Source of the DNA: Nostoc punctiforme PCC 73102 | GTDB taxonomy: Bacteria; Cyanobacteriota; Cyanobacteriia; Cyanobacteriales; Nostocaceae | NCBI RefSeq assembly: GCF_000020025.1 | Contig: NC_010628.1 | Coordinates: 3,090,001 to 3,122,000, forward strand | DNA: 32,000 nt | Direction of reading: 5' to 3' | Part shown: positions 2,192 to 19,213 of the stretch, one piece after another | Position numbering within the stretch: position 1 is the first letter of the stretch | Layout: each line of letters starts with the position of its first letter | Program-made: the position numbers and the translations under genes | Notes under the pieces: model-generated | The model's input: the letters and a program-made list of their open reading frames with translations, nothing else | The model's database searches: none | Told to the model about the DNA's origin: nothing

Positions 2192-2203
2192 TCATTAGTC
2201 CTC

Positions 2204-2248
2204 TGTCATTTGTCATTTGTAAAAATAAATGGCAAATGACAAATAACA
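2204..2248. repeat. Intergenic heptamer-repeat hairpin (GTCATTT units facing AAATGAC units) between the SBP and permease genes
   Basis: tgtcatttgtcatttg (2204-2219) pairs with caaatgacaaataaca (2233-2248). The core is a 9-bp perfect stem, extended with one mismatch, and the loop is ~13 nt. Confidence 0.7.
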
Positions 2249-2260
2249 AATAACTAAAAT

Positions 2261-3286: not shown

Positions 3287-3320
3287 CAAAAAGTTCTTAA
3301 TTCTTTCTAACCTTCTTGTG

Positions 3321-3346
3321 GGGTAGGCATCTTGCCTGCCCTTTTG
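3321..3346 (+). terminator. Rho-independent terminator after the permease gene
   Basis: GGGTAGGCA (3321-3329) pairs with TGCCTGCCC (3333-3341): 9 bp with one G-T wobble and a 3-nt loop, followed by TTTTG. Confidence 0.7.
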
Positions 3347-3407
3347 TATTAGATGAAGCAGTAAAATGTAGGTTGGGTTAAGCAAAGCGCAACCCAACAC
3401 AAAACTA

Positions 3408-3749
3408 TCATTTTGTCTGGGAAATATTATCGATTTGAGTTATCTGACCCAGAGATACTTTTACAGCTAATATGGGTATAGCAGTAGCTGCAATTAGAAC
3501 AGCAGTAGCCAGGATAATTGCGACTGGTTTACCACCATATTGGACTAAGACCTTAAAAATATTTTCTGCTGTCTGACCCCCAGCTTGAACTAATTCGACT
3601 GTATCTGATTTGCTTAAAGCAGCAGTAATATTTTCAGCGATATCGAGAAGTTGTTCTGTATTGTTTGACTGACTGGGAACATCTAGAGATTGAACTATTG
3701 GCTGTTGCTGTGTGGCTAAATTTTCATTTACAGGATAGTAAGTAGACAT
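3408..3749 (-). CDS. Hypothetical small protein with a C-terminal transmembrane helix
   Basis: 113-aa ORF. The N-terminal half is polar and Q-rich. The hydrophobic stretch PVAIILATAVLIAATAIPILAV lies near the C-terminus. I recognise no family. Confidence 0.45.
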   Translation of the reverse strand: MSTYYPVNENLATQQQPIVQSLDVPSQSNNTEQLLDIAENITAALSKSDTVELVQAGGQTAENIFKVLVQYGGKPVAIILATAVLIAATAIPILAVKVSLGQITQIDNISQTK

Positions 3750-3947
3750 CGTTTTGCACTCCTCTGTTGTTTCGATGTCTCTATATTCGCTTGTAGTCCA
3801 TAGTTATACGTAGGATGTAGGTAAATGTAGGATTAGGTCATAAATACAAAGAATATCTACATAGACGTAGGATTATGTAGGTTCTGCTGTAAAATAATAG
3901 ACTTATATCCAAGTGTTAACTTTACTCTACCAACTCAATCAGGTTAA

Positions 3948-4772
3948 ATGGAAGCTGAAGAAGCATTAGAGTCTATTAAGCAAATATTTAAGGAGAGAAA
4001 AGGAAACTTAGCATCACTGGGCAAGTTAGAAGAAAAAGTTTTTCTACTAAGTTGGCAAGGGATGAATTATAGTCAAATGCCTTCTAAAATAAAGAGGTCT
4101 AATCCTACTGCCAAACCATATACAGAACAGTATTTAAAAGAAATAGGTAAAAGTTTAAACGATAAGATTAAAAGAGTATTAAATATAGACGATCTTGATA
4201 AAAGAAATTTGAGAGAAGAACTTGAAAACTTTTTTGAGAGAAATTACAATTACTCTACTAAAAAACTATCTTATACCACTGCGCCAGAACCAGATTATAC
4301 TACTTCTCCAGAGTTAACTAATAATACTGTATCTGAGCTAAATCAAAATCCCTTCATTCCTTTTAGTGGCAGAGTAGAAGAAAAGTATCTATTTTTTGAC
4401 CGAGAGCGCGAAATCCGGCGAATATTTGAGGTACTGAATAGTGGTAGCGGACTAATTTTAGCGATCGCATTTGTTACTTCGGCGATCGCATTTGCTATTT
4501 CGGAGTTCGCATTTGTTATTTCAGCGATCGCATTTGTTACTTTGGAGTTCGCATTTGTTACTTCGGAGTTCGCATTTGCTATTTCGGAGTTCGCATTTGT
4601 TACTTCGGAGTTCGCATTTGTTACTTCGGGATTCGCATTTGTTATTTCGGGATTCGCATTTGTTACATCGGAGTTCGCATTTGCTATTTCAACGATCGCA
4701 TTTGCTATTATTGAGGGCTTATCTTCTCAAACTCCGAGGGTCGAGTGCATCTCTCAGCCCATCACCGAGTAA
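3948..4772 (+). pseudogene. Remnant of an HTH/STAND-type ATPase gene; only the N-terminal ~165 aa look native and the rest of the ORF is tandem-repeat-encoded
   Basis: The N-terminus has a LuxR/sigma-70 region 4-like HTH (LEEKVFLLSWQGMNYSQM...YTEQYLKEIGKSLNDKIKRVL). NPFIPFSGRVEEKYLFFDREREIRRIFEVLNSGSG follows, which is the segment that normally precedes Walker A in cyanobacterial STAND/AAA ATPases. No GKS/T P-loop follows. From 4461 the frame runs through a 21-bp repeat array, giving (EFAFVTS)n. Confidence 0.55.
4461..4712. repeat. Tandem array, 12 x 21 bp (consensus GAGTTCGCATTTGTTACTTCG; some units begin with HIP1 GCGATCGC)
   Basis: Units were counted directly: 4461, 4482, 4503 ... 4692. 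The array ends 7 nt before the stop of the convergent permease gene at 4719. All three + frames stay open, giving EFAFVTS and SHLLLRS repeats. Confidence 0.95.
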
Positions 4773-5834
4773 GTTGAATGCTAGCACTGTGAGAATAATC
4801 AACACAGCCGGCGGCCAAATTAACCAAGGTTGCAGTACCAAAATTGAAGCATTGCTAGCCAGAGAAAGCATATTTCCCCAAGAGGGGTCTGGTTGTTGAA
4901 TTCCCAAGCCGATGAGACTTAGTATCGCCTCTGCACCAATAAAGCTGGGAATTGCAAGAGTAGCGGAGATAACTACATAACTAGCCGTTTGCGGCAAGAC
5001 GTGGCGGAGGATTATATAAAGAGGGTTTGCGCCCATCGCGCGTGATGCTTGGACAAATTCTCGCTCTTTAATTGATAGTACCTGTCCCCGAATGACTCGT
5101 GCTAAACCAGCCCAGCTAATAACCGAAGTAATCACCACAATCAGCAAAAAGCGCTGGGTACTGCTTAAACCAGGTGGTAAGACTGCTCCCAAAGTCACCA
5201 AAAGATAAATACTAGGGAAGGTCATTAGCACTTCTGCCAAGCGCATAATGACGCTATCAGTCACACCGCCTAAATAACCGGAAATTCCACCAATGAGCAA
5301 ACCGAGGGGATAGGTAATGATAATGCCAAAAATCCCAATAAACATACTGATGCGACCGCCATGTAAGAGGCGACTAAATTGGTCGCGGCTTTGGTCATCA
5401 GTACCCAAGATATTGACTTTTGCGTCAGTTGTTGTGCCAAATAAATGCCAATTTAAGGGAATACCAGGAAAGATTGTGACTTCATCCCACTTGGGGGGTA
5501 GTGGCAAACTCATCTGCAACAATCGGTATTCTGGCCCGGAAACAAATAGACGTACAGGTGATGGCTTTTTGAAGTCTACGATGAGTTGGCGATCGCCTGT
5601 TTCTAAATTTGTGTCTCCCTGAGTTGTGGGATAAACATGGGGCCCGATAAACTGTCCTGATTGAGAAACCCAGTGTATCTGAGTTGGTGGCAGCAGTGAA
5701 CCATTAGGCTGTGAGGCATAAGGGTCATAAGGAGCCACGAAATCTGCTGCAATTACTGCTATGTAGAAAATTAACAGCAAAATCGCCCCAAATTGTGCCA
5801 AAGGATTTTTCTTTAGTCGTCGCCACCAATCCAT
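4719..5834 (-). CDS. ABC transporter permease (DppC/OppC-like)
   Basis: 371-aa ORF. The N-terminus is MDWWRRLKKNPLAQFGAILLL...DPY, followed by a periplasmic insert, then a permease core with the EAA loop (EFVQASRAMGANPLYIILRHVLPQ). Confidence 0.9.
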   Translation of the reverse strand: MDWWRRLKKNPLAQFGAILLLIFYIAVIAADFVAPYDPYASQPNGSLLPPTQIHWVSQSGQFIGPHVYPTTQGDTNLETGDRQLIVDFKKPSPVRLFVSGPEYRLLQMSLPLPPKWDEVTIFPGIPLNWHLFGTTTDAKVNILGTDDQSRDQFSRLLHGGRISMFIGIFGIIITYPLGLLIGGISGYLGGVTDSVIMRLAEVLMTFPSIYLLVTLGAVLPPGLSSTQRFLLIVVITSVISWAGLARVIRGQVLSIKEREFVQASRAMGANPLYIILRHVLPQTASYVVISATLAIPSFIGAEAILSLIGLGIQQPDPSWGNMLSLASNASILVLQPWLIWPPAVLIILTVLAFNLLGDGLRDALDPRSLRR

Positions 5835-5970
5835 AGTAGTTAGGAGTTATTAGTTATGAGTTTATGAGTTATTAAAGTTTTATCTTAATTCATAACTCAT
5901 CATTCTCAACTTCCCACTCCCCACTCCTAATTCCTGTACAGACACAGATTTTTCGCGTCTCTCCTAACTC

Positions 5971-6852
5971 TCAACTCCCCACACCTAACTTCTCTAAATA
6001 CTTCTGCTGTTCTTGCTGTTGTTTTTCGTGTTCTACAACAAACACGTTTGAGTAAAGATTAGCGAGAATTTGTTTGCCCTGTTGTGTCAATGATAGGTAA
6101 TGCAGCCCTTCTTGGATATAGGGATAGACACCATTCCAGTAAAACTTAGCGTAGTTATTCCGTAAATCGGCAGGGGTTTTATAGCCCAAAACTTTGTTTA
6201 CACCAGTTTCTTCAAACTCGTAAAATAAAGAAGTAATTTTCTTCAGGTAACGTGGGTCGCTTAGTTGACCAATCAAATCAGCAGCCCGGACTAATCCGGC
6301 AAAGCATTTTGTATCTTGATGATCTTCTGCCGCAGGCACGGGAAATCGTGTCAGTTCAATATTGCTCTTAATTGCCTCAGCATCTATTAACTTGTGACCT
6401 CCAAAACGCTCATCAATAAAAAGCTTGGCTCTATCAACATGATACGGCGTAAGACTGGCATCAGAAGCGCCAGGAGCGACAGAAACCATTTTGCCATTTT
6501 TACCTGTGGAATATAAGCCTACTGCTTCTTGGTCTAGTCGGCAAACTCCCTTAACGTAGCCAATATCATGGCTCACTAAGGAAATAATACAATGCAACCA
6601 GTCTTCACTGGAAACACCGCCTTCTCTGATGTGTTTGCCACGTAAGATTTCTTGCCCCACAAGGGTGACAAGAACTGTGTGTTCAACATTGTGATAAAGG
6701 GCATCGCTATTGGCAATGTTTTCCAAAGCCATGTTACCAGCCCAGGCGATAATATCCTGATAATCATTTTTAAAGCAGCCATAAGTGCGACGGTAGCCTT
6801 CTCGAATTTCATTTACAAAGGCATCAATTAAAATTTCAGTGGCATTGAACAT
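5971..6852 (-). CDS. HD-domain-like metal-dependent phosphohydrolase family protein
   Basis: 293-aa ORF with H..(YHNVEH)...HD (SLVSHDIGY) spacing typical of HD superfamily proteins. Its specific function is unknown. Confidence 0.5.
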   Translation of the reverse strand: MFNATEILIDAFVNEIREGYRRTYGCFKNDYQDIIAWAGNMALENIANSDALYHNVEHTVLVTLVGQEILRGKHIREGGVSSEDWLHCIISLVSHDIGYVKGVCRLDQEAVGLYSTGKNGKMVSVAPGASDASLTPYHVDRAKLFIDERFGGHKLIDAEAIKSNIELTRFPVPAAEDHQDTKCFAGLVRAADLIGQLSDPRYLKKITSLFYEFEETGVNKVLGYKTPADLRNNYAKFYWNGVYPYIQEGLHYLSLTQQGKQILANLYSNVFVVEHEKQQQEQQKYLEKLGVGS

Positions 6853-7419
6853 ATCTGGTGACTCTGGTAAATATCAATTATTTATTGATTTGATTGATTT
6901 CAAAATTCCACCATTAGGATCGCCCTGGCTGGAATTTAGGGTAATGGAGTTTGCTCATTTGTAACTCACGTGTAGCTGTGGACGCTAGCTTGAACTATCC
7001 CTGGATGTACAACTTTCTGACAAGACAAAGGCTTTAGAGGAGTTAGTATTTGCGTAGATAAAAGGTTTTGCTGGTTTAATAAAATACATTGATAGCTCAG
7101 ACTTTAATTAAATAATTCTAGATTAGCTTTATCAGTTTTTCATATATAAGCATTGGTTGACAGCGATCTAAATGGGTATATTGTGTGAGTTAGAGTAGCT
7201 AGATGAAATGAAATAATTTTTTGTATCATAATCTACAGAAAGGCTTCAATTAGTTTACGGCAGTAATATTTCTTAGCAAAGAAGTCCTATTATATACAAT
7301 TGCAAACAAAAGACATTTACTATGAAATGCGTCATAGTTGATGGGAAGTAAATAAATTTCAAGTTTTCTTAAGAAAATACCAAGATTGGTATGCGTAGAC
7401 AGAAAGTGGAGGTCGGACT

Positions 7420-8877
7420 GTGAGCGATGAAAGTGTTTCAGAAATCGAGGTGAAAGAAGCTATAACCTCTGAGGATGCTAACTTTTTGAGCAAATCAGAG
7501 CAAAAATCAACTAGGGCATGGTTGAAGCCATTATTTTTGGGTGCTGGTTTAGGAATTGCGATCGCCTTTGGTGGAATGAGTGTATTAAGTCATCTTCCAT
7601 CCCGTCAACAAAGCGCGGTAGCGGATAAAAAAATTAACCCATCAATGACAGTTACTATCGCCACAGTAGAAGCCGCCCGTGTTGTGCGGACTCTTAAAAC
7701 TACTGGAACTGTAGCAGCACGTGATTTAATTCCGGTTCTACCACAGACAAACGGTTTACAAATCAAAAGTATCCCTGAAGATGTTAAAGAAGGGGTTTTT
7801 GTCAAAAAAGGTCAAGTTTTGGCGGTGTTGGATGGTTCCATATTGCAAAGCCAAATTAGCCAAGCAAAGGCAGATGTCGAATCAAAACAAGCCGATGTCG
7901 AATCCAAACAAGCAGATTTGGCATCCAAGCAGGCAGATTTGGCATCAAATAAAGCCATAGTCCAGCAAAAACAAGCAGATTTAGCTCAAGCGAAGGCAAA
8001 GCTAGAAGAAGCCGCCAAAAATTATCAGCGCTATCAACAACTGGCTGATTCTGGAACCATTAGTAGGCAAGAACTTGATACTCGTTCCTACGCTGTAAAA
8101 ACTGCCATACAAGTTGTGAATCTATCCCAAGAAAACCTGCGTAGTGCCCAGGCTAATATCGGCAGCGCCCAGGCTAATATTAGTAATGCTCAAGCTATTA
8201 TCAACAAAGCCAAAGCTGATGTCCGCAGCAGTGCCGCTAGGGTGCAACAACTACAAACTCAGTTGGAACAAACTGTGATGCGTGCGCCGGTTTCTGGAGT
8301 CATCGCGGAGAAACTGGCCAGAGTCGGTGATGTGACTGGTGTGCCGCCGCAAACGCAGGTGGGAACCGTGATTGGTGGCACACAAAAGCTATTTTCGATT
8401 ATCCGAGATGAAAAGTTAGAACTTCAAGCGAAGGTTCCTGAAATTCAATTAAATCAGGTGAAAATTGGCGCATCTGTGCAAATTACTTCAGATGTCGATC
8501 AGCGCGTGCGATCGCAAGGACGAGTCAGAGAGATTCAACCACAGGTGAACGATCAAAGGCGAGAGGCTACAGTCAAAATTGACTTACCGCCAACCACTTT
8601 ACTTAAACCAGGGATGTTTGCGAATGCTGCAATTACTACTAACTCAGCGATGACGATGGTAGTGCCGCAAAAAGCAGTCCAATCTCAAGCAGATGGAAGT
8701 GTAATTGTATTCACCTTATCAAGTGGAGATATAGTTCGCAGCCAGAAAGTGGACTTAGAAAATCCTACAAACGGCGACAAAGTAGAAATTAAGAGTGGGT
8801 TGCAGTTAGGCGATCGCATCGTAGTTGATGGTGCAGGATATCTCAAAGATGGTGATAAGGTTCGAGTTGCAAATTGA
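7420..8877 (+). CDS. Efflux RND transporter periplasmic adaptor (MFP/HlyD family)
   Basis: GTG start and an N-terminal TM segment. It has a long coiled-coil hairpin and C-terminal beta-barrel motifs (MRAPVSGVI...; ..IVVDGAGYLKDGDKVRV). It lies directly upstream of the RND pump gene. Confidence 0.9.
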   Translation: MSDESVSEIEVKEAITSEDANFLSKSEQKSTRAWLKPLFLGAGLGIAIAFGGMSVLSHLPSRQQSAVADKKINPSMTVTIATVEAARVVRTLKTTGTVAARDLIPVLPQTNGLQIKSIPEDVKEGVFVKKGQVLAVLDGSILQSQISQAKADVESKQADVESKQADLASKQADLASNKAIVQQKQADLAQAKAKLEEAAKNYQRYQQLADSGTISRQELDTRSYAVKTAIQVVNLSQENLRSAQANIGSAQANISNAQAIINKAKADVRSSAARVQQLQTQLEQTVMRAPVSGVIAEKLARVGDVTGVPPQTQVGTVIGGTQKLFSIIRDEKLELQAKVPEIQLNQVKIGASVQITSDVDQRVRSQGRVREIQPQVNDQRREATVKIDLPPTTLLKPGMFANAAITTNSAMTMVVPQKAVQSQADGSVIVFTLSSGDIVRSQKVDLENPTNGDKVEIKSGLQLGDRIVVDGAGYLKDGDKVRVAN

Positions 8878-8983: not shown

Positions 8984-11900
8984 ATGTCCTTTAATATCTC
9001 AGCTTGGTCGATTAAAAAACCTGTTCCTACGATAGTTTTATTTTTAATTTTGACGGTTGTGGGTTGGTTCTCCTTTTTATCCTTGGGGATTGATACTAAC
9101 CCAAATATTGATGTCCCAACAGTTTCGATCAAAGTCACCCAACCAGGTGCAGGCCCAGCCGAACTAGAATCCCAAGTGACGAAAAAAATTGAAGATGCCG
9201 TCGCGGGGTTGGGCAATATCGATTTTATGATTTCCACCGTCAGCGATGGGAATTCTAAGACGACAATCAACTTTGTTTTGGGTACAGATAGCGATCGCGC
9301 CACCAATGATGTCCGCAATGCGATCGCTCAAATTCGCCAAGATTTACCCCAAGAGATCAACGATCCAATTGTGGAACGTCTAGACTTTGCCGACGGCCCG
9401 GTGATTACTTACGCGGTTAAATCAGATAAGCGTTCTGTAGAAGAGTTAAGCAATATTGTCGATCAAACTATTAGCCGCGCCTTATTGGGAGTCCGTGGTG
9501 TCGCCCAAATTCAACGTGTGGGTGGAGTTGACCGAGAAATTCGGATTAATCTGAGTCCCAGCCGCTTACAATCTCTGGGTATCACCGCCACTCAGGTAAA
9601 CGACCAAATCCGCGATTTAAACATTAACTTACCTGGCGGACGGGCTGAAGTCGGCGGTAGCGAACAAAGTATCCGCACATTAGGAAGTGCCGCCAGTGTG
9701 GATATTTTGAAAACCTACGAAATCCTCTTACCACAAGGCGGTTCCGTACCATTATCCAGTTTGGGAACTATAGAAGATAAATTTGGTGACGTGCGCCAAG
9801 CTGCTACCTTAAATAATCAACCTGTGGTAGCTTTCCAAGTGTTGCGTAGTACTGGCAGCGTTCTGGTGACAGTAGAACAAGGAGTGAAAGCAGCTGTCAA
9901 AGAACTGGAAAAAACACTTCCCGCAGATGTCAAACTAGATTTGATTTTTACTAGAGCCGATGTTGTTCGCCAATCATACCAAAGCACTATTGATGAATTA
10001 ATTCAAGCTTCGGTGCTGGCTGTCATCGTTATTTTAGTATTTTTGCGGGACTGGCGAGCAACATTAATTACGGCTGTTGCTTTACCATTGTCAATAATTC
10101 CCACTTTCGCAGTGCAGCAAGCCCTTGGTTACACCCTCAACAACATGACTTTGTTGGCATTAGCGCTGGCGGTGGGCAACTTGGTAGATGATGCCGTGGT
10201 GGAAATTGAAAACATGGAACGGCATATCGCTATGGGCAAATCAGCTTGGGATGCTGCTTTTGAATCTGCCGACGAAGTAGGATTAGCGGTAATCGCAAGT
10301 TCAGCAACGATTATTGCCGTGTTTATGCCCGTTGCTTTTATGGGTGGGATTCCGGGACAATTTTTCCAACCATTTGGTGTTACCGTTGCCGTTTCCACAA
10401 TTTTCTCAACTCTTGTCGCGCGGATGGTTACACCGATGATGGGGGCGTATCTTTTAAAAGAGGCAGGGGAGCAGGGGAGCAGGGGAGCAGGGGAGCAGAG
10501 GGAGCAGAGGGAGCAGAGGGAGCAGAGGGGCAGGGGAGCAGGGGGAGTAATAAGATTGTTTAATTTCAAGTTTGCAATCCCAGGTAGAAAGCAGGGAAAC
10601 AGAACACTCAGAACTGACAACCGTCGGGGGTTTCAACCTTATAGATCGTTATTACAATGGGCGTTACGCCATAGATTGACCACAATGGCGATCGCTTTAG
10701 CTTTCTTCATTGCCAGTCTGATGCTGGTTCCTTTAATTCCCAAGGGTTTCGTTGATGATGGCGACTTTGGGATTTCTAACGTATCTATAGAACTACCTCC
10801 AGGTTCGACATTAGAAGACGTTAATAAGGTAGTCACACAGGCAACTGATATCATTCGGCAAAACCCAGTAGTTGAACGTGTACTAGCAACCGAAGAGATC
10901 AATTCTGCAAGCCTGGCAATTAATCTCAAACCTAGAGAAGAACGAAAGATTTCTCAAAAACAGTTTGAGGAACAAGTACGCCCTGACTTTGAGCAAATAC
11001 CAGGAGCGAGAATTAGTTTTCAAAGTCAGTCACCAGGCGACAGTCGGAAGGGTTTATCAATTGTTCTCAGAAGTGAAAATCCCGAAGCATTGAATCAAGC
11101 GGCTGATGCCCTAGAAAAGCAAATGCGATCGCTACCAGGATTGGTAGAAGTGTCTTCGACTGCAAGCTTGGTGAAACCAGAGATTTTAGTAATTCCTAAC
11201 CCACAACGGGCAGCAGATTTGGGAGTGACAGTACAAGCGATCGCTCGGACAGCTTCTCTGGCCACCATCGGCGATAATGAGGCCAACTTGGCAAAATTTA
11301 ATTTAAGCGATCGTCAAATCCCGATTCGCGTACAAATCGATCCGAAAGTGCGGGCTGACATTAACACAATCACAAATCTGCAAGTCCTCAGTCAAAATGG
11401 CAAATTGATTCCCCTAGTGGCAGTTGCAGATATCCGTTTTGGTAGTGGCCCTGCAACCATCAACCGTTACGATCGCGCCCGTCAAGTTGCCGTAGAAGCC
11501 AATTTACAAGGGATTTCTTTGGGAGAGGCAGTAGAAACAATCAACAAACTACCTGTGATGCAAAACTTACCGCCAGGGGTAGTACAGCAACCCTCCGGTA
11601 GCGCCAAAATTATGCAAGAAATTTTTGGGCGCTTTGGTGGCGCGTTAGGGCTGGCATTAATGTGTATCTATGCGATTCTGGTGTTGCTGTATAACAACTT
11701 TCTGCATCCATTATCGATTATGGCGGCCTTGCCCTTTTGTTTAGGCGGCGCACTGGTGGCGTTGATGGTTGCTCAAAAACCATTGGGGATATATGCCTTG
11801 ATTGGTATCGTGTTGCTGTTGGGGATTGTCACCAAAAACTCAATTCTGTTGGTGGATTATACAATCATCAACATCCAAGAAGGCAAAACTCAGCGTCAGG

Positions 11901-12166
11901 CACTCGTAGAAGCTGGCGTGTCACGTCTGCGTCCGATTTTAATGACTTCTCTGGCAACGATCGCCGGGATACTGCCCCTAGCGTTAGGAATTGGCGCAGG
12001 TTCTGAAGTTCGGCAACCAATGGGAATTGCCATTATGGGCGGTTTCACAACTTCCACCCTGTTGACACTGGTAGTAGTGCCAGTGATATTTAGCTACATT
12101 GACAACTTCCAAACTTGGATTATGAATACATTGCGCTGTGGATTTGGCAAGAAACCATCGCGTTAA
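8984..12166 (+). CDS. RND efflux transporter permease (AcrB/AcrD/AcrF family)
   Basis: 1060-aa ORF with two 6-TM halves and large periplasmic loops. The N-terminus is typical (SAWSIKKPVPTIVLFLILTVVG). It is paired with the MFP gene. Confidence 0.95.
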   Translation: MSFNISAWSIKKPVPTIVLFLILTVVGWFSFLSLGIDTNPNIDVPTVSIKVTQPGAGPAELESQVTKKIEDAVAGLGNIDFMISTVSDGNSKTTINFVLGTDSDRATNDVRNAIAQIRQDLPQEINDPIVERLDFADGPVITYAVKSDKRSVEELSNIVDQTISRALLGVRGVAQIQRVGGVDREIRINLSPSRLQSLGITATQVNDQIRDLNINLPGGRAEVGGSEQSIRTLGSAASVDILKTYEILLPQGGSVPLSSLGTIEDKFGDVRQAATLNNQPVVAFQVLRSTGSVLVTVEQGVKAAVKELEKTLPADVKLDLIFTRADVVRQSYQSTIDELIQASVLAVIVILVFLRDWRATLITAVALPLSIIPTFAVQQALGYTLNNMTLLALALAVGNLVDDAVVEIENMERHIAMGKSAWDAAFESADEVGLAVIASSATIIAVFMPVAFMGGIPGQFFQPFGVTVAVSTIFSTLVARMVTPMMGAYLLKEAGEQGSRGAGEQREQREQREQRGRGAGGVIRLFNFKFAIPGRKQGNRTLRTDNRRGFQPYRSLLQWALRHRLTTMAIALAFFIASLMLVPLIPKGFVDDGDFGISNVSIELPPGSTLEDVNKVVTQATDIIRQNPVVERVLATEEINSASLAINLKPREERKISQKQFEEQVRPDFEQIPGARISFQSQSPGDSRKGLSIVLRSENPEALNQAADALEKQMRSLPGLVEVSSTASLVKPEILVIPNPQRAADLGVTVQAIARTASLATIGDNEANLAKFNLSDRQIPIRVQIDPKVRADINTITNLQVLSQNGKLIPLVAVADIRFGSGPATINRYDRARQVAVEANLQGISLGEAVETINKLPVMQNLPPGVVQQPSGSAKIMQEIFGRFGGALGLALMCIYAILVLLYNNFLHPLSIMAALPFCLGGALVALMVAQKPLGIYALIGIVLLLGIVTKNSILLVDYTIINIQEGKTQRQALVEAGVSRLRPILMTSLATIAGILPLALGIGAGSEVRQPMGIAIMGGFTTSTLLTLVVVPVIFSYIDNFQTWIMNTLRCGFGKKPSR
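10461..10547. repeat. G-rich short tandem repeats inside the RND CDS: (CAGGGGAG)x4, (CAGAGGGAG)x3, then further CAGGGG units
   Basis: Read directly. They encode AGEQGSRGAGEQREQREQREQRGRGAGG in the linker between the two transporter halves. Confidence 0.9.
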
Positions 12167-12525: not shown

Positions 12526-12918
12526 ATGCCCTTTCTCGTAACCCTGAGTGCAGAAGAACGACGTAACTTATTTAAAATGGGCGATAAAAGACTAGCTTTT
12601 GTCAACAATAGCCTGATTGCTGCCCAATCTAACCGAGACATTTTACCAGCCAGCTTTGATTTAGATGAGTTCATCCGGGATTATCAACTAGCCGCCACGC
12701 TTACCGAAGTTTTGATTGGACTGCGACAACTGACAGAACAAGTAGATGATACCTTAATGGCAGTTGGTAGCGAAGCAATGGGCAGCAGTTTGACAGTTTA
12801 TGATTACGTCAAGACAGCTGCTAAGAAAACTCCAGGGTTAAAAATAATAGCTGAACAATTAGGCGAACGCTTTAAAGCGATTAAAAAGAAACCTGCTAAA
12901 GCTGCTGTCGATTCTTAA
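12526..12918 (+). CDS. Conserved hypothetical protein; possibly N-terminally truncated by an in-frame TAA at 12490-12492
   Basis: 130-aa ORF. In the same frame upstream, ATG 12442 gives MAYQNITASLSPADIQ-stop-IKAAFATIQAK, which runs directly into MPFLVTL... and reads like native protein. Confidence 0.6.
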   Translation: MPFLVTLSAEERRNLFKMGDKRLAFVNNSLIAAQSNRDILPASFDLDEFIRDYQLAATLTEVLIGLRQLTEQVDDTLMAVGSEAMGSSLTVYDYVKTAAKKTPGLKIIAEQLGERFKAIKKKPAKAAVDS

Positions 12919-12919
12919 A

Positions 12920-13133
12920 GGATTTTTTAAAAGCCTTTAGTGATGTAGCAAATACTTTGAGATCCCCCTAAATCCCCCTTAAAAAGGGGGACTTTGACTC
13001 CGGTTCCCCCCTTCTTTAAGGGGGGTTAGGGGGGATCTCCAATGACTATGCACAAAAAGCGTGACTTTGACTCCGGTTCCCCCCTTTTTTAAGGGGGGTT
13101 AGGGGGGATCTCGAATGACTATGCACCAAAACC
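12920..13133. repeat. Dispersed hairpin element copy A (+ orientation) with an internal ~73-bp tandem duplication
   Basis: The run tagtgatgtagcaaatactttgagatccccctaaatcccccttaaaaagggggactttg matches copy C. The gactttgactccggttcccccc...ggggggatctc.aatgactatgcac block occurs twice (12990-13062 and 13063-13133). Confidence 0.85.
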
Positions 13134-13171: not shown

Positions 13172-13558
13172 ATGACAAATAAACTCAATAGCAGCAATCA
13201 CCATTTACCTTACAATCCAAAGCTTGTAGAAAGAGCGAAAGAACTTCGTAAAAATATGACCCCAGCAGAAAAAAAGCTGTGGTATGAATATTTGAGAAAT
13301 TTTCAATTTCGGGTTTTAAGACAACGACCGATTAATCATTTCATAGTTGATTTCTACTGTCCTACTTTAAAAATAGTGATTGAAGTTGATGGGGATAGCC
13401 ATTTTACAGATGAAAGTCAAGAGTACGATCTAGAGAGAACAAACATTTTGGAAGGCTATGGTTTAAAGATTATTAGGTTTACAAATAGTCAAGTTTTAAA
13501 TCACTTTGATAGTGTGTGTGAGCAGATACAGCGTCTGATCCCCCCTAGCACCCCTTAA
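13172..13558 (+). CDS. DUF559 (Vsr-like) endonuclease domain protein
   Basis: 128-aa ORF with the typical DUF559 run: MTPAEKKLWYEYLRN...FRVLRQRPINHFIVDFYCPTLKIVIEVDGDSH...DLERTNILEGYGLKIIRFTNSQV. The last ~8 codons and the stop lie inside repeat copy B. Confidence 0.85.
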   Translation: MTNKLNSSNHHLPYNPKLVERAKELRKNMTPAEKKLWYEYLRNFQFRVLRQRPINHFIVDFYCPTLKIVIEVDGDSHFTDESQEYDLERTNILEGYGLKIIRFTNSQVLNHFDSVCEQIQRLIPPSTP

Positions 13559-13745
13559 AAAGCTACGGTGTACACACAAGTTTTCTAGAGTTGCGCCATA
13601 GGCTTTTGATCCCCCCAACCCCCCTTAAAAAGGGGGGCAAAACCTCTCAAAGTCCCCCTTCTTAAGGGGGATTTAGGGGGATCTCAAAGTATTTGCTACC
13701 GAGGAGAGGACTTTTCAAATATCCTCTTAACCGAATCGTATTGAA
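13533..13745. repeat. Dispersed hairpin element copy B (inverted relative to copies A and C)
   Basis: The reverse complement of 13533-13745 aligns by eye with 17330-17530 over most of its length (roughly 85% identical). Shared runs include ggtgtacaca.aag, gatcccccc..cccttaaaaagggggg and agaggat.tttgaaaag. Confidence 0.85.
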
Positions 13746-13780: not shown

Positions 13781-13890
13781 AATGAACCTCAGAACTTTGT
13801 GAATGAACCTCAAAGCATCGGCGATGAACCTCAGAGCTTTGTGAATGAACCTCAAAGCATCGGCGATGAACCTCAGAGCTTCGTTAATGA
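13781..13890. repeat. Tandem array, ~5 x 21 bp (AATGAACCTCARARCWTYGKB), inside a 50-codon ORF (13766-13918)
   Basis: The NEP/DEP codon triplets recur at 13781, 13802, 13823, 13844 and 13865, with a degenerate copy at 13886. The ORF reads MYLLV(NEPQNFV)(NEPQSIG)(DEPQSFV)(NEPQSIG)(DEPQSFV)NESLILAHEH. Confidence 0.9.
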
Positions 13891-13999
13891 GTCTTTAATA
13901 CTCGCCCACGAACATTAAAGGCTCTCAATCAGGAATTAGGAATTGCAAGGTTGTTATTATACTTTTAGCCGCGTGTAATCTGCCACCTTGCCCCAAATT

Positions 14000-16900
14000 A
14001 TGCTCACCATACCCCGCCACACCAGCAGATCGCTCTTTTTCCTTTTCTGTTTCACCCTACTCCTAACTCTCTTCCTCTCCCTACCTTGGGTAAACGCCAA
14101 AGAAACCCCCAAACCCAAACCCCAAGATTGGCAGATTAACGGTATAGTAGCCGCCCTTGATGACGGACACGACCAAGTTAAGAAATCTGCTTTTGACAAA
14201 CTCAATGAATATGATTTGCAAAATTTAAAATCAGTAGTTGAGAAACCAGAAAATATTGCTGACAAAGCCTTCAACATCCTCAAGGATAAATCCGTTGACA
14301 GTGATGTTCGTTCCAGTGCAGCAGTGGCATTGGGAAATCTGGGGGAGGCTGCCAAACCCTACGTCAAAGACATCCTCGACATCCTCAAGGATAAATCCGT
14401 TGACATTAATGTTCGTTCCAGTGCAGCAGAGGCATTGGGAAATCTGGGGGAGGCTGCCAAACCCTACGTCAAAGACATCCTCGACATCCTCAAGGATAAA
14501 TCCGTTGACAGTGATGTTCGTTCCGGTGCAGCAAAGGCATTGGGAAATCTGGGGGAGGCTGCCAAACCCTACGTCAAAGACATCCTCGACTTCCTCAAGG
14601 ATAAATCCGTTGACAGTTATGTTCGTTCCGATGCAGCAGAGGCATTGGGAAATCTGGGGGAGGCTGCCAAACCCTACGTCAAAGACATCCTCGACTTCCT
14701 CAAGGATAAATCCGTTGACAAAGATGTTCGTTCCGGTGCAGCAGAGGCATTGGGAAATCTGGGGGAGGCTGCCAAACCCTACGTCAAAGACATCCTCGAC
14801 TTCCTCAAGGATAAATCCGTTGACAAAGATGTTCGTTCCGGTGCAGCAGAGGCATTGGGAAATCTGGGGGAGGCTGCCAAACCCTACGTCAAAGACATCC
14901 TCGACATCCTCAAGGATAAATCCGTTGACAGTTATGTTCGTTCCGGTGCAGCAGAGGCATTGGGAAATCTGGGGGAGGCTGCCAAACCCTACGTCAAAGA
15001 CATCGCCGACATCCTCAAGGATAAATCCGTTGACAGTAATGTTCGTTACGGTGCAGCATCGGCATTGGGAAATCTGGGGGAGGCTGCCAAACCCTACGTC
15101 AAAGACATCCTCGACTTCCTCAAGGATAAATCCGTTGACAGTGGTGTTCGTTCCGGTGCAGCAGTGGCATTGGGAAATCTGGGGGAGGCTGCCAAACCCT
15201 ACGTCAAAGACATCCTCGACATCCTCAAGGATAAATCCGTTGACATTAATGTTCGTTCCAGTGCAGCAGAGGCATTGGGAAATCTGGGGGAGGCTGCCAA
15301 ACCCTACGTCAAAGACATCGCCGACATCCTCAAGGATAAATCCGTTGACAGTGGTGTTCGTTACGGTGCAGCAGTGGCATTGGGAAATCTGGGCGATGCT
15401 GCCAAACCCTACGTCAAAGACATCCTCGACTTCCTCAAGGATAAATCCGTTAACAGTTATGTTCCTTACGGTGCAGCAGTGGCATTGGGAAAGATAAAAC
15501 AACTCGAATTAAATGAGATTGTGGTAATTCTGGATAGCGTCTATTACGCAGGTCAATCAGAATTTGCACGGTGGCGATTTTTAACCTATTTCCTTGGTGG
15601 CGGCACTGATGAAGTCAAAACACTGCTTACATGGCTGGGGTTTCCTAAAAAAATTCCTGCTTCCTTACCCCATGACCAAGGCGTGAAAACTCTCAACATC
15701 TTTGCCCAAGCCTGGGAACCCAGCCAAGATTTTGCTCGATTACGGGAAGACTTAGCCAAACAAATCGCTGTAGTCGCCAGAAAAGTCTCTTGGCAACCCC
15801 AAGATATTGTTATTTTAGAAACTCACTACAAAAACCTCAAAAAAGCAGGATACAGTGAAACCGACTCACTGCAAGCAGCCATAGTTAACCTCAAAGGTTG
15901 GCAGTGGTTTTTCAACGCCAGAATCACCATCCTCACTCACGCTGCCTTCTGGCTTCTCCTCATCTTTGCCTACCCCAAATCCCCCCAAATCCAAGCCATC
16001 TTCTTCTGGAACCCGTGGGTACGCCGTATTCTCGGCATGGGCTACGTCGGCTTTCTCCTCACCTGGGTTCCCTTTTTCCGCCGCAAATTACTTGAACCCT
16101 TCAAGCCTTCCCTGTTAGCCGATGCCGGGTTAGATAACTTTCATGACCAATCATACTTCCCCCAGTCGCAAGTCAAAGTTACTTCGGGCGACATCCTCCC
16201 CATTACCGCCGCCCTCCCCAGCATCAAAGGACAAATCATCTTAGAAGGTGATTCTGGCTTAGGCAAGTCGATGTTTCTCCGCCATCTGTTGCAAAATCAA
16301 GAGCGCATTGTTGTTTACCTCCCCGCCCAAAAATGCGATAAAGGCGTAATCGAAGCCATTCAAGAAAAGCTACACGGGCAAGCCCAAGATGCGGGCTTCC
16401 TGAAAAACCTGATTTACAGTGGTGCAATTGACATCTGCATCGACGGACTCAACGAAGTCACCGCCGAAACACGGGCGAAAATCTGTCAGTTTGTCGAAAG
16501 CTATTTCCGGGGCAACATTATTATGACAACCCAGCCCCTAGAGTGGACACCACCCTCAACCGCCAAAACCTATTATTTGCAACCCTTAGAACAAAGCCAA
16601 ATTCAAGAATTTTTGCTTTCCCGCCAGCAGCGACTCCCCAAAGATGCCAAAATTCAAGGCGCTGATTACGCCCAAGCCTGCACCAATTATTTAACAGAAG
16701 TCCTCAAAGACCAACAAGCTCAAGAAGAATTAGAGGCTGCCCGTCGCATTCTCTCCAATCCAATGGATTTAACTGTAGTTGCCTTGATGTTATCCCAAGG
16801 CAAACATCCTAATTTATTCCGCCTGCAAGAACAGCAATACAACTTAATGGCGGCAGAATACCTCAAAGAATGGAATCAAGAATTTCCCTTAAAGAAATTC

Positions 16901-17302
16901 TCCGCCGCCGTCTACGAAATGCGACTCCAAGACAAACAAGCCTTACCCGCCGATGAATTTCACCAAGTCGCCATGTCTTTGTCAGACGAGAAATACAAAA
17001 TGGTAGTCAGCCGTCAGTGGCAAGATGACAAAGGTGAAGCCAAAAAAGAATGGTACTTCCGCCACGATAAAATCATGGACTTCTTCTTAGTGCAGAACTT
17101 TTTGGGCGAAACTGATGCCGCCGAAGGACTATTAGTTGATAGAATGGGCGATCCGCGTTTTCGTGGCGTTTATTTCTTGCTAGCAACCTTACTTCCTTTA
17201 GATGCAGCCAAAGAACTGCGAGAAGATTTGATTCAATACGCGGCTGATACCAAAGACAATACGGTGAGTAATACCTTTGTACAGTTGTTACGGACTAGAT
17301 AA
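14000..17302 (+). CDS. Large membrane-associated protein with an N-terminal hydrophobic/signal-like segment, 12 HEAT-like repeats, two hydrophobic segments and a NACHT-like P-loop NTPase (STAND type)
   Basis: ATG at 14000; the ORF track starts at an in-frame TTG at 13988. The signal-like N-terminus is SLFFLFCFTLLLTLFLSLPWVNA. Twelve 35-aa repeats read LKDKSVDxxVRxxAAxALGNLGEAAKPYVKDILD. Hydrophobic segments are ITILTHAAFWLLLIFAY and ILGMGYVGFLLTWVPFF. NTPase motifs are Walker A GDSGLGKS (~16247-16270), Walker B IDICIDGLNEV (~16430-16460), IIMTTQP (TSRP-like) and ..WYFRHDKIMDFFLVQ (winged-helix-like). Confidence 0.85.
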   Translation: MLTIPRHTSRSLFFLFCFTLLLTLFLSLPWVNAKETPKPKPQDWQINGIVAALDDGHDQVKKSAFDKLNEYDLQNLKSVVEKPENIADKAFNILKDKSVDSDVRSSAAVALGNLGEAAKPYVKDILDILKDKSVDINVRSSAAEALGNLGEAAKPYVKDILDILKDKSVDSDVRSGAAKALGNLGEAAKPYVKDILDFLKDKSVDSYVRSDAAEALGNLGEAAKPYVKDILDFLKDKSVDKDVRSGAAEALGNLGEAAKPYVKDILDFLKDKSVDKDVRSGAAEALGNLGEAAKPYVKDILDILKDKSVDSYVRSGAAEALGNLGEAAKPYVKDIADILKDKSVDSNVRYGAASALGNLGEAAKPYVKDILDFLKDKSVDSGVRSGAAVALGNLGEAAKPYVKDILDILKDKSVDINVRSSAAEALGNLGEAAKPYVKDIADILKDKSVDSGVRYGAAVALGNLGDAAKPYVKDILDFLKDKSVNSYVPYGAAVALGKIKQLELNEIVVILDSVYYAGQSEFARWRFLTYFLGGGTDEVKTLLTWLGFPKKIPASLPHDQGVKTLNIFAQAWEPSQDFARLREDLAKQIAVVARKVSWQPQDIVILETHYKNLKKAGYSETDSLQAAIVNLKGWQWFFNARITILTHAAFWLLLIFAYPKSPQIQAIFFWNPWVRRILGMGYVGFLLTWVPFFRRKLLEPFKPSLLADAGLDNFHDQSYFPQSQVKVTSGDILPITAALPSIKGQIILEGDSGLGKSMFLRHLLQNQERIVVYLPAQKCDKGVIEAIQEKLHGQAQDAGFLKNLIYSGAIDICIDGLNEVTAETRAKICQFVESYFRGNIIMTTQPLEWTPPSTAKTYYLQPLEQSQIQEFLLSRQQRLPKDAKIQGADYAQACTNYLTEVLKDQQAQEELEAARRILSNPMDLTVVALMLSQGKHPNLFRLQEQQYNLMAAEYLKEWNQEFPLKKFSAAVYEMRLQDKQALPADEFHQVAMSLSDEKYKMVVSRQWQDDKGEAKKEWYFRHDKIMDFFLVQNFLGETDAAEGLLVDRMGDPRFRGVYFLLATLLPLDAAKELREDLIQYAADTKDNTVSNTFVQLLRTR
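14270..15495. repeat. Intragenic tandem repeat, ~11.6 x 105 bp (HEAT-like units), with very high nucleotide identity
   Basis: GCCAAACCCTACGTCAAAGAC recurs every 105 nt (14351, 14456, 14561 ...). It generates spurious long ORFs in the other + frame and on the - strand. Confidence 0.95.
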
Positions 17303-17329: not shown

Positions 17330-17530
17330 TAGAGGATGTTTGAAAAGTTCTTAGTGATGTATCAAATCCTTTTAGATCCCCCTAAATCCCCCTTAAAAAG
17401 GGGGACTTTGAAAGCTTTTTGCCCCCCTTTTTAAGGGGGGTTGGGGGGATCAAAAGCTTATGGGGCAACTCTCAAAGACTTATGTGTACACCGTAACTTT
17501 TTAAGGGAGGTTAGGGGGGATCAATAAGTG
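17330..17530. repeat. Dispersed hairpin element copy C (+ orientation)
   Basis: It begins 28 nt after the stop of the NTPase gene and is the inverted partner of copy B. It contains CCCCCTTAAAAAGGGGG and CCCCCCTTTTTAAGGGGGG hairpins. Confidence 0.85.
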
Positions 17531-17620: not shown

Positions 17621-19213
17621 TCATTCATGTTCTATTGCGATCGCTCTTGGGGCATCGCCAACTGTTGCCAGTTGTACTGTAAATGTGGAACCTTCATATA
17701 ATTTACTTTTTACAGAAATAGATCCCCCACAGCGCAGCAGCAATTGCTGTACTATTGTTAACCCCAAGCCAGCACCAGCATAATCTTCTGTAGCTGATGT
17801 ACGCACACGATAAAATCGCTCAAAGATTTTAGCAATCTCGCTTTCGGCAATACCAATCCCTGTATCGCGGAATTCTAATTGGACATAATCGCCTTGAAGA
17901 CGGGCACGCACCCATACTTCACCCCCATTAGGAGTAAACTTAATGCTGTTGTGCAGCAGATTAATTACAATCTGCCTCAGCCCACCACTCACACACCAAA
18001 TAGATGGCAGTTCAGTGGGTACGGTGTAGGCTAGCATAATCCCTTTTTCTTGGGCTAAAGGTTGGTACGTACTAACTACTCCAGGTACAATATCTGAGAG
18101 CCGCACCGACTCCAAAACCATCCCCTCCAAATTACGTTCTAGTTGCACCAGTTCCAACAAACCTGTAATTAAAGAATTTTGTTGATCGCACTGGGTATTT
18201 AACATCTGTAAATAGCGTTGTCGCTGCGTAGGTTTGAGATTAGGAGAATTCAATAACGAAAGTGCTGTTTTGATATGCGTCAGGGGTATACGCAATTCCT
18301 GACAGAGATTTTTCAGATATTCATCTTGCAATTGTTCTTTGTTGTGCAGTTCTTGATTTATCTGCTGCAACTTGGTGGTGCGAGCTGTGATGATTTGGCG
18401 ATTAATTTCATCCTGTCGCAGGAGTTGTTTTGCAAATAGTTGACTCATCGTTGCCGCTTCCGGCATCGTTGGACAAATAAAATCAGCAGGTACAATTGGC
18501 GATGATTCTGGCGCGTAGACACCTGGTAGCTTGTCGTTAGATATCGCTTTTTGGATACCATTTAATACTTGCTGAATTACTCTTCCCTCAACAGTGGTGA
18601 TAATCAGCAATGGCTGATTTTTATTAGAATTTACCTTCCCTAATGTCTGATTTTTGCGTTTTTTAAGTGGTCGATGAGCCAAAATTAAACTACAAAACTG
18701 GGGTGATAACACCATCAAAAAGTTTTCCCGTCGCAGTTGGCTATCTGGTGGCAGGTGAACGGTGACATGATGAGTAGATGAGAAAGATGAGGGGGAAGGG
18801 TGCAAAGGAGAGGAATTTTCCCCCTGTTCGCTGCCCCCTGCTCCACTTCGGCTCCCTTCTCTACGAGAGGCTGCGCCAACGGCTTCGCTCAGGGCAGGAC
18901 GCTCAGTGACCACCTGCTCCCTGCCCCCTGCTTCCTCATCTCCCTGTTTTTCATTTTCGTCAAGCTGGCAAGTATAGATGATACTAAACGCACCCACTGA
19001 GGATTGGTAACGCGCTAATTCTGATTGCCAAATTTTTTCTGGTGGTAGCTTCACCCATAAAGTGGCTGCAATTTGCTGCTCAATTAGTAAGTCAATTTGC
19101 GCTCTCACCAGTGATAGCAGAGTCGCAGGACTGAGGGACAATGGTTTTGGAGGCACTTGCACTCCCATAACCAGTTGATAAACAGACAGATCCTTAGCCA
19201 GAGAAACATTCAT
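17621..19213 (-). CDS. Sensor histidine kinase (N-terminal sensory domain + HisKA + HATPase_c)
   Basis: H-box ELRIPLTHIKTALSLL, N-box LLHNSIKFT, G1 DTGIGI and G2 GAGLGL are present. The N-terminal domain is interrupted by a low-complexity, repeat-encoded insert. Confidence 0.9.
   Translation of the reverse strand: MNVSLAKDLSVYQLVMGVQVPPKPLSLSPATLLSLVRAQIDLLIEQQIAATLWVKLPPEKIWQSELARYQSSVGAFSIIYTCQLDENEKQGDEEAGGREQVVTERPALSEAVGAASRREGSRSGAGGSEQGENSSPLHPSPSSFSSTHHVTVHLPPDSQLRRENFLMVLSPQFCSLILAHRPLKKRKNQTLGKVNSNKNQPLLIITTVEGRVIQQVLNGIQKAISNDKLPGVYAPESSPIVPADFICPTMPEAATMSQLFAKQLLRQDEINRQIITARTTKLQQINQELHNKEQLQDEYLKNLCQELRIPLTHIKTALSLLNSPNLKPTQRQRYLQMLNTQCDQQNSLITGLLELVQLERNLEGMVLESVRLSDIVPGVVSTYQPLAQEKGIMLAYTVPTELPSIWCVSGGLRQIVINLLHNSIKFTPNGGEVWVRARLQGDYVQLEFRDTGIGIAESEIAKIFERFYRVRTSATEDYAGAGLGLTIVQQLLLRCGGSISVKSKLYEGSTFTVQLATVGDAPRAIAIEHE
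18815..18950. repeat. Dispersed repeat inserted in frame in the kinase CDS: a hairpin-element core flanked by C-rich CTGCCCCCTGCT(C/T)C runs
   Basis: The reverse complement of 18845-18876 is ggcgcagcctctcgtagagaagggagccgaag. This is near-identical to 28030-28061 inside the nrdJ intron. Confidence 0.8.

Follow-up and report, generated by a model that had tools for sequence, protein, structure and literature searches.

A HEAT-repeat protein of Nostoc punctiforme annotated as 'PBS lyase' is a predicted NLR-like STAND receptor with an inverted transmembrane architecture

We examined a 32,000-nt stretch of the Nostoc punctiforme PCC 73102 chromosome (RefSeq assembly GCF_000020025.1, contig NC_010628.1, positions 3,090,001 to 3,122,000; hereafter the window, in whose coordinates features are given) with a focus on one gene at 13988..17302 (+; stop codon 17300-17302). 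Sequence comparison and structural modeling indicate that its product belongs to a family of NLR-like STAND receptors with an inverted transmembrane architecture, in which a secreted N-terminal HEAT array is predicted to be joined by a transmembrane (TM) helix to a C-terminal NACHT module, and which the databases mislabel 'PBS lyase'. Its most likely function, with a probability that we put at roughly 0.6, is that of an outside-in, NLR-like conflict sensor that spans the membrane as a single polypeptide. The gene, on a chromosome of 8,234,322 bp, holds one open reading frame (ORF) of 1104 aa counted from a TTG at 13988, which sets the residue numbers used below. The public annotation (ACC81045.1 / WP_012409039.1 / UniProt B2J9L8) takes the ATG at 14000 as the start, giving 1100 aa; the database copy (P0284) was 100% identical, and the only name attached to ACC81045.1 is 'PBS lyase HEAT domain protein repeat-containing protein'. 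A preliminary description, made from the letters alone, had singled out the gene for its unusual layout, with a repeat array upstream of an NTPase. The array proved real at both the DNA and the protein level, and the layout is not a matter of chance, for it recurs across hundreds of homologs.

We hold the architecture of the protein and its NACHT membership with high confidence, and the C-terminal half is a genuine NACHT module. The module (residues 710-1104, 16115..17299, +) comprises a nucleotide-binding domain, a helical domain, a winged helix and a C-terminal helical domain, and the protein ends approximately 70 residues past the winged-helix motif. All four NTPase motifs named in the preliminary description were recovered on the plus strand: Walker A GDSGLGKS (residues 754-761, nt 16247-16270), Walker B IDICIDGLNE with DGLNE inside it (residues 814-823, nt 16427-16456), the sensor-1 strand IIMTTQP (residues 844-850, nt 16517-16537), and the winged-helix histidine motif FRHDKIMDFF (residues 1024-1033, nt 17057-17086). 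Among 71 diverse homologs the G, S, G, G and K of Walker A, the D-G-L-N of Walker B (its E nearly so) and the FRHDK block, which corresponds to the winged-helix histidine motif, were invariant. A first AlphaFold2 (AF2) model built from 68 close homologs was unusable, with a predicted local distance difference test score (pLDDT) of 59.7, and was replaced by a second built from a more diverse alignment of 71 sequences (36-90% identity), which reached a pLDDT of 89 and a predicted TM-score (pTM) of 0.69. When Foldseek was run against the PDB, NLRC4 (3.3e-7), NOD2 (7.9e-7) and the NLRP3 NACHT (2.3e-5) ranked first as structural matches to the C-terminal 400 aa, the last of these (8zem) with a TM-score of 0.54 on the target over 485 aligned columns; ORC, AAA+ proteins and Avs4 ranked below them. 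In addition, the family profile matched NLRC4 by sequence (5e-4) from Walker A to the sensor-1 strand, and an unusual form of Walker B, DG[LY]NE, is common to the family and NLRC4 (LLDGYNE aligned to IDICIDGLNE); a winged-helix His motif is a further feature in common with the animal NLRs. The original call of a NACHT-like STAND NTPase is upheld by these structural and profile matches. Other searches contributed little: the single sequence of the NTPase half found no match in the PDB, NCBIfam, PADLOC and PHROGs gave nothing informative for the NACHT half, and Pfam AAA_22 produced a sub-threshold match to the P-loop (2e-4).

The N-terminal half carries a predicted Sec-type signal peptide at residues 5-37 (14000..14098, +), identified from the sequence and from conservation in homologs, with the n-region MLTIPRHTSRS, the h-region LFFLFCFTLLLTLFLSL, the c-region PWVNA and a predicted cut at VNA|KE; the call rests on a rule-based check of n-, h- and c-regions with small residues at -3 and -1. 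The signal-like segment ...LSLPWVNA|KE pointed out earlier was located at residues 32-39 and is kept in full-length homologs. A hydrophobic N-terminal core was present in 90 of 120 family representatives with long N-regions, and a small-x-small site followed the core in 82 of the 90; most of the remaining representatives start within a HEAT repeat and are thus probably gene calls that were cut short. A rhizobial plasmid member likewise has a signal peptide (...ARASFA|ATP). Members without HEAT repeats carry other domains directly after the signal peptide, namely secretin N0 (P0194, 2e-23), STN (P0204, 1.4e-17), or N0 plus PDZ (P0164). STN, secretin N0 and PDZ are families known chiefly for periplasmic functions. 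At the opposite end, a minority of members extend past the NACHT module with TIR_2 (P0220, 3.8e-15), EAD11 (P0176 and P0238, up to 7.9e-17), EAD2 (P0248, 8.7e-16), a marginal class III cyclase (P0250), a second STAND-like ATPase, or one of two domains without assignment. TIR, EAD and NTPase domains act in the cytoplasm. A topology with the N-terminal half outside and the NACHT half in the cytoplasm is thus strongly supported by the sequence features of the family, as is the suspicion, already voiced from the letters alone, of a membrane-tethered protein with an extracytoplasmic repeat domain, for which the signal peptides and the STN, N0 and PDZ members speak. With the N-terminus outside and the C-terminus inside, the number of membrane crossings must be odd.

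Two hydrophobic segments had been reported between the array and the NTPase; both were found, at residues 646-662 and 681-697, together with a third, shorter stretch between them (666-678). The first lies within a TM helix assigned to residues 644-662 (ARITILTHAAFWLLLIFAY; 15917..15973, +) from hydrophobicity, the AF2 model and conservation. It is preceded by a helical juxtamembrane domain (residues 503-643, 15494..15916, +), defined from the AF2 model and without a Pfam match, which is conserved in the family and was modeled with a pLDDT of ~90-96; a single 37-residue helix (residues 625-661) runs unbroken in the model from this domain into the first hydrophobic segment. Beyond it the model shows short helices of 6-7 residues (666-672, 676-681 and 687-693; pLDDT 71-80) within a near-invariant, membrane-proximal hydrophobic element (residues 663-709, 15974..16114, +) that was delimited from conservation, the model and insertion energies and follows the plan P-K-SPQIQAIFFWNPWV-RR-ILGMGYVGFLLTWVPFF-RRK-LLEPFKPSL. 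In 148 representatives, H651 was conserved at 90%, W655 at 100%, R679 at 99%, G683 at 99%, Y686 at 100%, P695 at 96% and R698 at 96%, and L658, Y662-P663, Q669, F673-W674-N675 and P704-F705 were also near-invariant. The conserved Arg/Lys clusters (664, 679-680, 698-700 and 706) all lie past the first helix, each later hydrophobic stretch has positive charges at both ends, and the hydrophobic moment showed these stretches to be uniformly hydrophobic, not amphipathic. Insertion energies, estimated on a simplified Hessa scale without position terms, were -4.3 kcal/mol for the signal-peptide core and -0.2 kcal/mol for the first segment, compared with +2.0 kcal/mol for residues 681-697 (+7.2 with the flanking arginines) and ~+10 for the middle stretch.

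The most economical reading of sequence and model is therefore one true crossing (644-662) followed by a putative re-entrant or inner-leaflet element (663-709). The preliminary description had noticed that a cleaved signal plus two TM helices would leave the NTPase outside the cell, and had listed a re-entrant segment among the ways out of this paradox; it is this option that is favored by the family-wide signal peptide, the periplasm-type N-terminal domains, the cytoplasmic C-terminal additions and the presence of one convincing TM helix. We also considered a membrane-tethered but wholly cytoplasmic NLR, in which an uncleaved N-terminal anchor and a central TM hairpin would leave the sensor to read intracellular ligands at the membrane. 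Such a hairpin would place both domains on the same side without a re-entrant element, the two hydrophobic stretches are each ~17 aa long and the second is the more hydrophobic on the Eisenberg scale, and HEAT-like proteins such as phycobilisome lyases are normally cytoplasmic. We nevertheless judge this arrangement improbable, because signal peptides of canonical cleavable form (a positive n-region, then an AXA site) occur across phyla, because the same TM and NACHT module follows STN, secretin N0 or PDZ in HEAT-less homologs, and because the second stretch spans only 17 residues between the conserved RR and RRK, is split into short helices in the model and would insert unfavorably once its flanks are included.

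Between the signal peptide and the juxtamembrane domain lie an N-terminal cap (residues 38-95, 14099..14272, +), which contains the family-recurrent motif PKPKPQDWQINGIVAALDD and, directly after the signal peptide, the family-alignment consensus W...G..AAL.D, and an array of αRep/PBS-lyase HEAT-like units (residues 96-502, 14273..15493, +). Tandem Repeats Finder delimited the array at 14274-15492, with a period of 105 nt, 11.6 copies and 94% matches, and Pfam HEAT_2 and HEAT_PBS matched it at E = 1.5e-55 and 5.8e-36, respectively. Its ten complete 35-aa units (residues 123-472) are accompanied by a partial and a degenerate one, and the repeat shows the LKD..D..VR..AA.ALG motif of helix-turn-helix, HEAT-like repeats of the αRep/PBS-lyase type. 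The HEAT_PBS match, a weak NCBIfam match to NblB and the name 'PBS lyase' in the source databases are what favor the annotated function, that of a PBS-lyase or NblB-type HEAT protein acting on phycobiliproteins. This function is effectively refuted, and we give it next to no chance: NblB scored 49 bits against a cut-off of 300, the match reflects only a repeat type that artificial αRep proteins also have, the signal peptide, membrane element and NACHT are foreign to lyases, and the family occurs in non-photosynthetic Proteobacteria, in Bacteroidia and on rhizobial plasmids. Two long ORFs cross the array in other frames, at 14231-15502 (-; 423 aa) and 14238-15497 (+; 419 aa); since the tandem repeat is stop-free, they are artifacts and not genes.

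Variation within the array was confined to a fixed set of positions. Pairwise codon comparison of the ten complete units gave 182 non-synonymous versus 9 synonymous differences, and all amino-acid variation among them fell at unit positions 8, 10, 18, 19, 22, 23, 26 and 33. The same analysis was extended to 24 independent arrays (204 units, drawn from 80 genome loci), with units compared within each array by the Nei-Gojobori method. Positions 8, 10, 18, 19, 22, 23 and 26 were variable inside 22-24 of the 24 arrays; pooled over all arrays, the hypervariable positions had a proportion of non-synonymous differences (pN) of 0.18-0.51 and a ratio to the synonymous proportion (pN/pS) of 0.87-4.7, while the remaining positions as a class had per-array pN/pS values of 0.15-0.58, with a few individual framework positions higher on a very small pS. 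In the window array, pS was 0.010 in both classes, as opposed to a pN of 0.306 at hypervariable positions and 0.003 elsewhere. The number of units varied from ~4 to 15 between genomes. The best PDB matches to the window units by sequence were artificial αRep binders (down to 1.3e-35), and when the two were aligned on the identical register D-xx-VR-xx-AA-x-ALG, the randomized αRep positions coincided with window positions 18, 19, 22, 23 and 26. The agreement is not complete, as αRep units have 31 aa compared with 35 in the window and αRep position 30 is not variable in the window, and the natural array, unlike αRep, is predicted to be secreted and joined to a TM helix and a NACHT. The αRep positions had been picked from natural variability, and solved complexes show that they make up the concave face by which targets are bound (PMC3754942). 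Five of the seven hypervariable positions are thus concave-face positions, and the overall pattern is one of a framework evolving in concert together with a diversifying binding face. The same signature has been described for the repeat sensors of fungal NLRs. It strongly supports the view that the array evolves like an immune sensor, and the match between natural hypervariable and engineered positions suggests a natural repertoire of binding specificities. A diversity-generating retroelement (DGR) was rejected as the source of variation, because the substitutions are not adenine-specific (variable codons differ at all four bases, as in CTC/GCC, ATC/TTC and TCC/TAC) and no template repeat was found; nor was there a reverse transcriptase among the window ORFs scanned. 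Short-read assemblies broke systematically inside the array, and many loci begin within 1 kb of a contig end; for this reason a large part of the public homologs is 'partial', and database values for repeat number cannot be relied on.

An exhaustive search with residues 630-1104 defined a family of 849 clusters at 50% identity, 489 of them below 1e-30. Among the 150 best-scoring clusters listed, the membrane element and the NACHT formed one unit at or near the C-terminus, behind ~100-1260 aa. The named members were mostly filamentous cyanobacteria (Nostoc, Anabaena, Nodularia, Calothrix, Scytonema, Moorena and Phormidesmis), with others from Microcystis, Gammaproteobacteria (Ca. Kentrum, Competibacteraceae), Desulfovibrio, Ca. 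Wunengus, Bacteroidia, Bipolaricaulia and Entotheonellia. N-terminal HEAT repeats were present in 38 of 44 diverse representatives, so that the order signal peptide-HEAT-TM-NACHT is the family norm and no one-off fusion. We confirmed 270 loci among 185,579 species representatives, and 79 of the best 80 of these were from Nostocales. Several Nostoc genomes have two or more paralogs, which fall into clades ~90% (clade A) and ~78% (clade B) identical to the window protein. Members were found on four plasmids, one from Calothrix and three from rhizobia, and there was no match in 50,697 phage records.

Some individual members deserve description. One conjugative-plasmid member (L088; Rhizobium leguminosarum plasmid p3, NZ_CP071629.1, coding sequence 3691-8010) encodes 1439 aa, with a ~740-aa ectodomain that has no Pfam match, the same invariant membrane element as in the window, and a C-terminal domain of ~200 aa that is shared with P0206, P0216, P0245 and P0267 and has a PD-(D/E)xK-like 'IDVK' motif without a Pfam match; a 166-aa gene overlaps the stop codon of this receptor. 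The sole match in a viral contig collection was an ORF at 1658-5497 of the 74-kb contig IMGVR_UViG_2832142748_000002 (L086); its 1279-aa product has a C-terminal module 51% identical to that of the window protein, and the contig is either truly viral or a mis-binned host region. Five members (P0122, P0127, P0145, P0178 and P0198) carry behind the NACHT a second STAND-like P-loop ATPase of ~550 aa (GLFGLRKSGKTS...GGHPF, with a weak nSTAND1 match) and by their sequences would be tandem-NTPase receptors.

As an outside-in conflict sensor, the protein would work as follows. The Sec signal peptide would export the N-terminal half, an αRep-type HEAT solenoid whose concave face bears the fixed set of hypervariable residues, and this surface would bind a variable extracytoplasmic ligand, the candidates being proteins of phages or competitors that arrive at the cell surface or in the periplasm, and non-self molecules of other kinds. 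Binding would be relayed by the rigid juxtamembrane/TM helix to the NACHT module, which would then be freed to exchange nucleotide and oligomerize as cytosolic NLRs do. In relatives the output would come from a C-terminally fused TIR or from an EAD adaptor recruiting an effector (EADs are defined in PMC7159879). The window protein has no effector, and its output would therefore have to come either from clustering of the membrane element or from an unlinked partner, two speculative options that we regard as equally possible. Clustering might lead to membrane perturbation, a pore or an abortive response, and is a candidate because the polar residues of the element are extremely conserved. On a more far-reaching and only tentative interpretation, the family would be a bacterial transmembrane pattern-recognition receptor whose rapidly diversifying HEAT antenna, exposed at the surface or in the periplasm, detects non-self before or during a breach of the envelope (tail or ejection proteins of phages, toxins of competitors, or foreign kin) and whose NACHT oligomers on the cytoplasmic face drive either TIR/EAD output or a pore or lesion formed by the clustered residues H651, W655, Q669, N675, R679 and Y686.

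Several observations weigh against a conflict sensor of this kind. What the hypervariable positions prove is that the binding surface varies, and they do not prove a role in immunity; residues 681-697 are hydrophobic enough for a two-TM hairpin when judged from sequence alone. Pfam NACHT (PF05729) matched the P-loop alone, at 15.4 bits versus a cut-off of 26.7; relatives scored 20-26 bits at best, and the family is divergent. In the sensor-1 strand aligned to NLRC4, the Arg of the TSRP type is replaced by an invariant Gln (TTQP). No NLR or Avs model in PADLOC matched the window protein, no effector or adaptor domain was found after its NACHT, and a literature search on the accession and the architecture returned nothing specific. 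The gene lies among ordinary chromosomal genes and in no defense island, its neighbors in the window being an Opp-type ABC transporter, an HlyD plus AcrB (RND) pump, a 130-aa protein, DUF559, a DICT histidine kinase and MurE. No conserved partner gene is common to the window and the Nodularia, Calothrix, Competibacteraceae, Moorena, metagenomic and EAD11-member loci. Furthermore, identity within the NACHT half is 70-92% across Nostocales, a pattern that resembles vertical inheritance and contrasts with the patchiness of most defense genes.

The strongest competing explanation takes up many of these points. It holds that the protein is a conserved transducer of envelope or cell-wall signals in filamentous cyanobacteria, with a role in physiology or development and not in immunity; the NACHT would act as a regulatory switch, and the HEAT ectodomain would bind an endogenous component of the periplasm, for instance peptidoglycan machinery, a septal junction, an exopolysaccharide or a symbiosis cue. 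Vertical inheritance of a NACHT half that stays similar across Nostocales and beyond, the concentration of the best species-representative loci in Nostocales, the ordinary chromosomal context, the clade-A synteny with AcrB and the 130-aa gene described below, and the lack of an effector domain and of phage association are all consistent with it, as, weakly, are Mur ligase genes near the receptor in two genomes. We consider this explanation unlikely all the same, since hypervariable, positively selected positions and concerted evolution would not be expected in a receptor whose self ligand is conserved, relatives have fused TIR and EAD adaptor domains of the kind typical of conflict systems, paralog and repeat numbers differ between strains, and the family extends to conjugative plasmids and to unrelated phyla.

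The closest described systems are the bNACHT proteins of Kibby et al. (bioRxiv 10.1101/2022.07.19.500537), which resemble the family in their NACHT-clade STAND module, their enrichment and multiple copies in cyanobacteria, their superstructure-forming repeats, including HEAT, as 'antigen-receptor-type' sensors, and the TIR and EAD-type outputs that appear in relatives of the window protein. They differ in being cytosolic, with an N-terminal effector, a NACHT and a C-terminal sensor, whereas the family is predicted to have a secreted N-terminal sensor, a TM helix, a NACHT and an optional C-terminal effector. The tripartite order of bNACHT and Avs proteins is thus reversed in the window protein, relatives carry effectors or adaptors at the C-terminus, and neither the Pfam NACHT model nor those of PADLOC capture the family. 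The same study defines a 'TM regions' class of bNACHT that possibly reads intramembrane or periplasmic signals. In the accessible part of its Table S1, a table that does not record TM segments, there was no HEAT-before-NACHT entry, and our literature search found no description of a secreted N-terminal HEAT sensor joined by a TM helix to a C-terminal NACHT; within these sources, the initial failure to match the protein to a described bacterial NLR system still stands. The DGR-diversified STAND/NACHT sensors of Doré et al. (PMC10907252) are comparable in being diversified putative antigen sensors on NACHT/STAND proteins, and some of their NACHT targets are predicted to face the periplasm, but there a retroelement acts on a C-type-lectin fold, whereas the family would rely on repeat recombination and selection.

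Eukaryotic receptors offer further points of comparison. Animal NLRs such as NLRC4, NOD2 and NLRP3 are cytosolic proteins that carry an LRR sensor at the C-terminus and a CARD or PYD at the N-terminus; they are only 10-13% identical to the family and have Arg in sensor-1 where the family has Gln. Fungal NLRs of the HET-E/D, NWD type, compared here by description, likewise have near-identical tandem repeats, few positively selected surface positions and a variable repeat number, but their repeats are of the WD40, ANK or TPR type, lie C-terminal to the NOD and are cytosolic. By analogy, Toll-like receptors (TLRs) and plant LRR receptor kinases have the order predicted for the family, with a signal peptide, a solenoid sensor, a single TM and a cytoplasmic signaling domain, and family member P0220 even ends in a TIR; their ectodomain is non-homologous (LRR versus HEAT), and they lack a NACHT NTPase. 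To our knowledge, all NLR/STAND immune receptors characterized to date, whether bacterial, fungal, plant or animal, sense ligands inside the cell. Extracellular sensing is the task of unrelated classes such as TLRs and receptor kinases. The present family suggests that bacteria have a transmembrane counterpart of these normally cytosolic innate-immune receptors. If so, NLR-type signaling can be driven across a membrane, a new class of defense or recognition genes has been overlooked by the Pfam NACHT and PADLOC models, and one gene in the model organism Nostoc punctiforme offers a genetically tractable system; the pattern-recognition interpretation, if correct, would amount to a prokaryotic hybrid of TLR topology and NLR engine.

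Turning to the genomic neighborhood, the 130-aa protein (12526..12918, +) is an upstream syntenic neighbor of the receptor at clade-A loci only: its gene was directly upstream at 26 of 33 clade-A loci and at 0 of 16 clade-B loci. The protein is 87-97% conserved and had no match in Pfam, NCBIfam, PADLOC or PHROGs. AcrB preceded the receptor at 11 and DUF559 at 8 of the 33 clade-A loci, and neither was present at any of the 16 clade-B loci. Given their absence from clade B, the 130-aa gene, AcrB and DUF559 represent synteny and not components of a system, so that the two partners proposed in the preliminary description, DUF559 and the 130-aa protein, have to be withdrawn, the latter being a clade-specific neighbor only. 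The possibility raised there of a ubiquitous housekeeping gene in a fixed context does not hold either, as the context is kept only in one Nostoc ortholog clade. Next to an EAD11 member we found no EAD11-bearing effector; a 2OG-Fe(II) oxygenase lies downstream, followed by the contig end.

Upstream of the receptor, 80-200 nt from its start codon, lies a 21-nt tandem repeat (ATGAACCTCARAGC...; 13782..13907, +). It was found upstream of the gene at 12 loci, 11 of clade A and one of clade B (L077), in 1-10 copies with a 21-nt phase; L009, L011, L012, L018, L028, L035, L043, L047 and L069 are among them. A function in regulation, or as a promoter element whose copy number varies (phase-variable), is possible, and as each unit begins with ATG, mini-ORFs are also conceivable. 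The DUF559 (Vsr/endonuclease-like) gene at 13172-13558 (+) is flanked by repeats at 12945-13126 and 13536-13699 that include inverted copies of a G/C-rich palindromic element (89 nt, 88% complementary), and it appears to have been inserted between the receptor and the 130-aa gene. A 145-nt palindromic element resembling a miniature inverted-repeat transposable element (GATCCCCC..AAAAAGGGGG.. type) occurs at 13536-13680 and 17379-17523, with more copies at 12945-13126; its inverted arms (81% complementary) bracket the entire receptor gene and may belong to the ordinary intergenic repeats or terminators that are dispersed in Nostoc, or mark a mobile cassette. Finally, an 8-nt tandem repeat (GGGAGCAG) at 10459-10547 lies in frame within the AcrB ORF (8984-12166) and encodes a Gly/Glu/Gln/Arg-rich insert (GEQGSRGAGEQREQREQREQRGRGAGG), and a similar low-complexity insert was seen in the protein encoded by the DICT histidine kinase ORF on the minus strand (~18800-18970).

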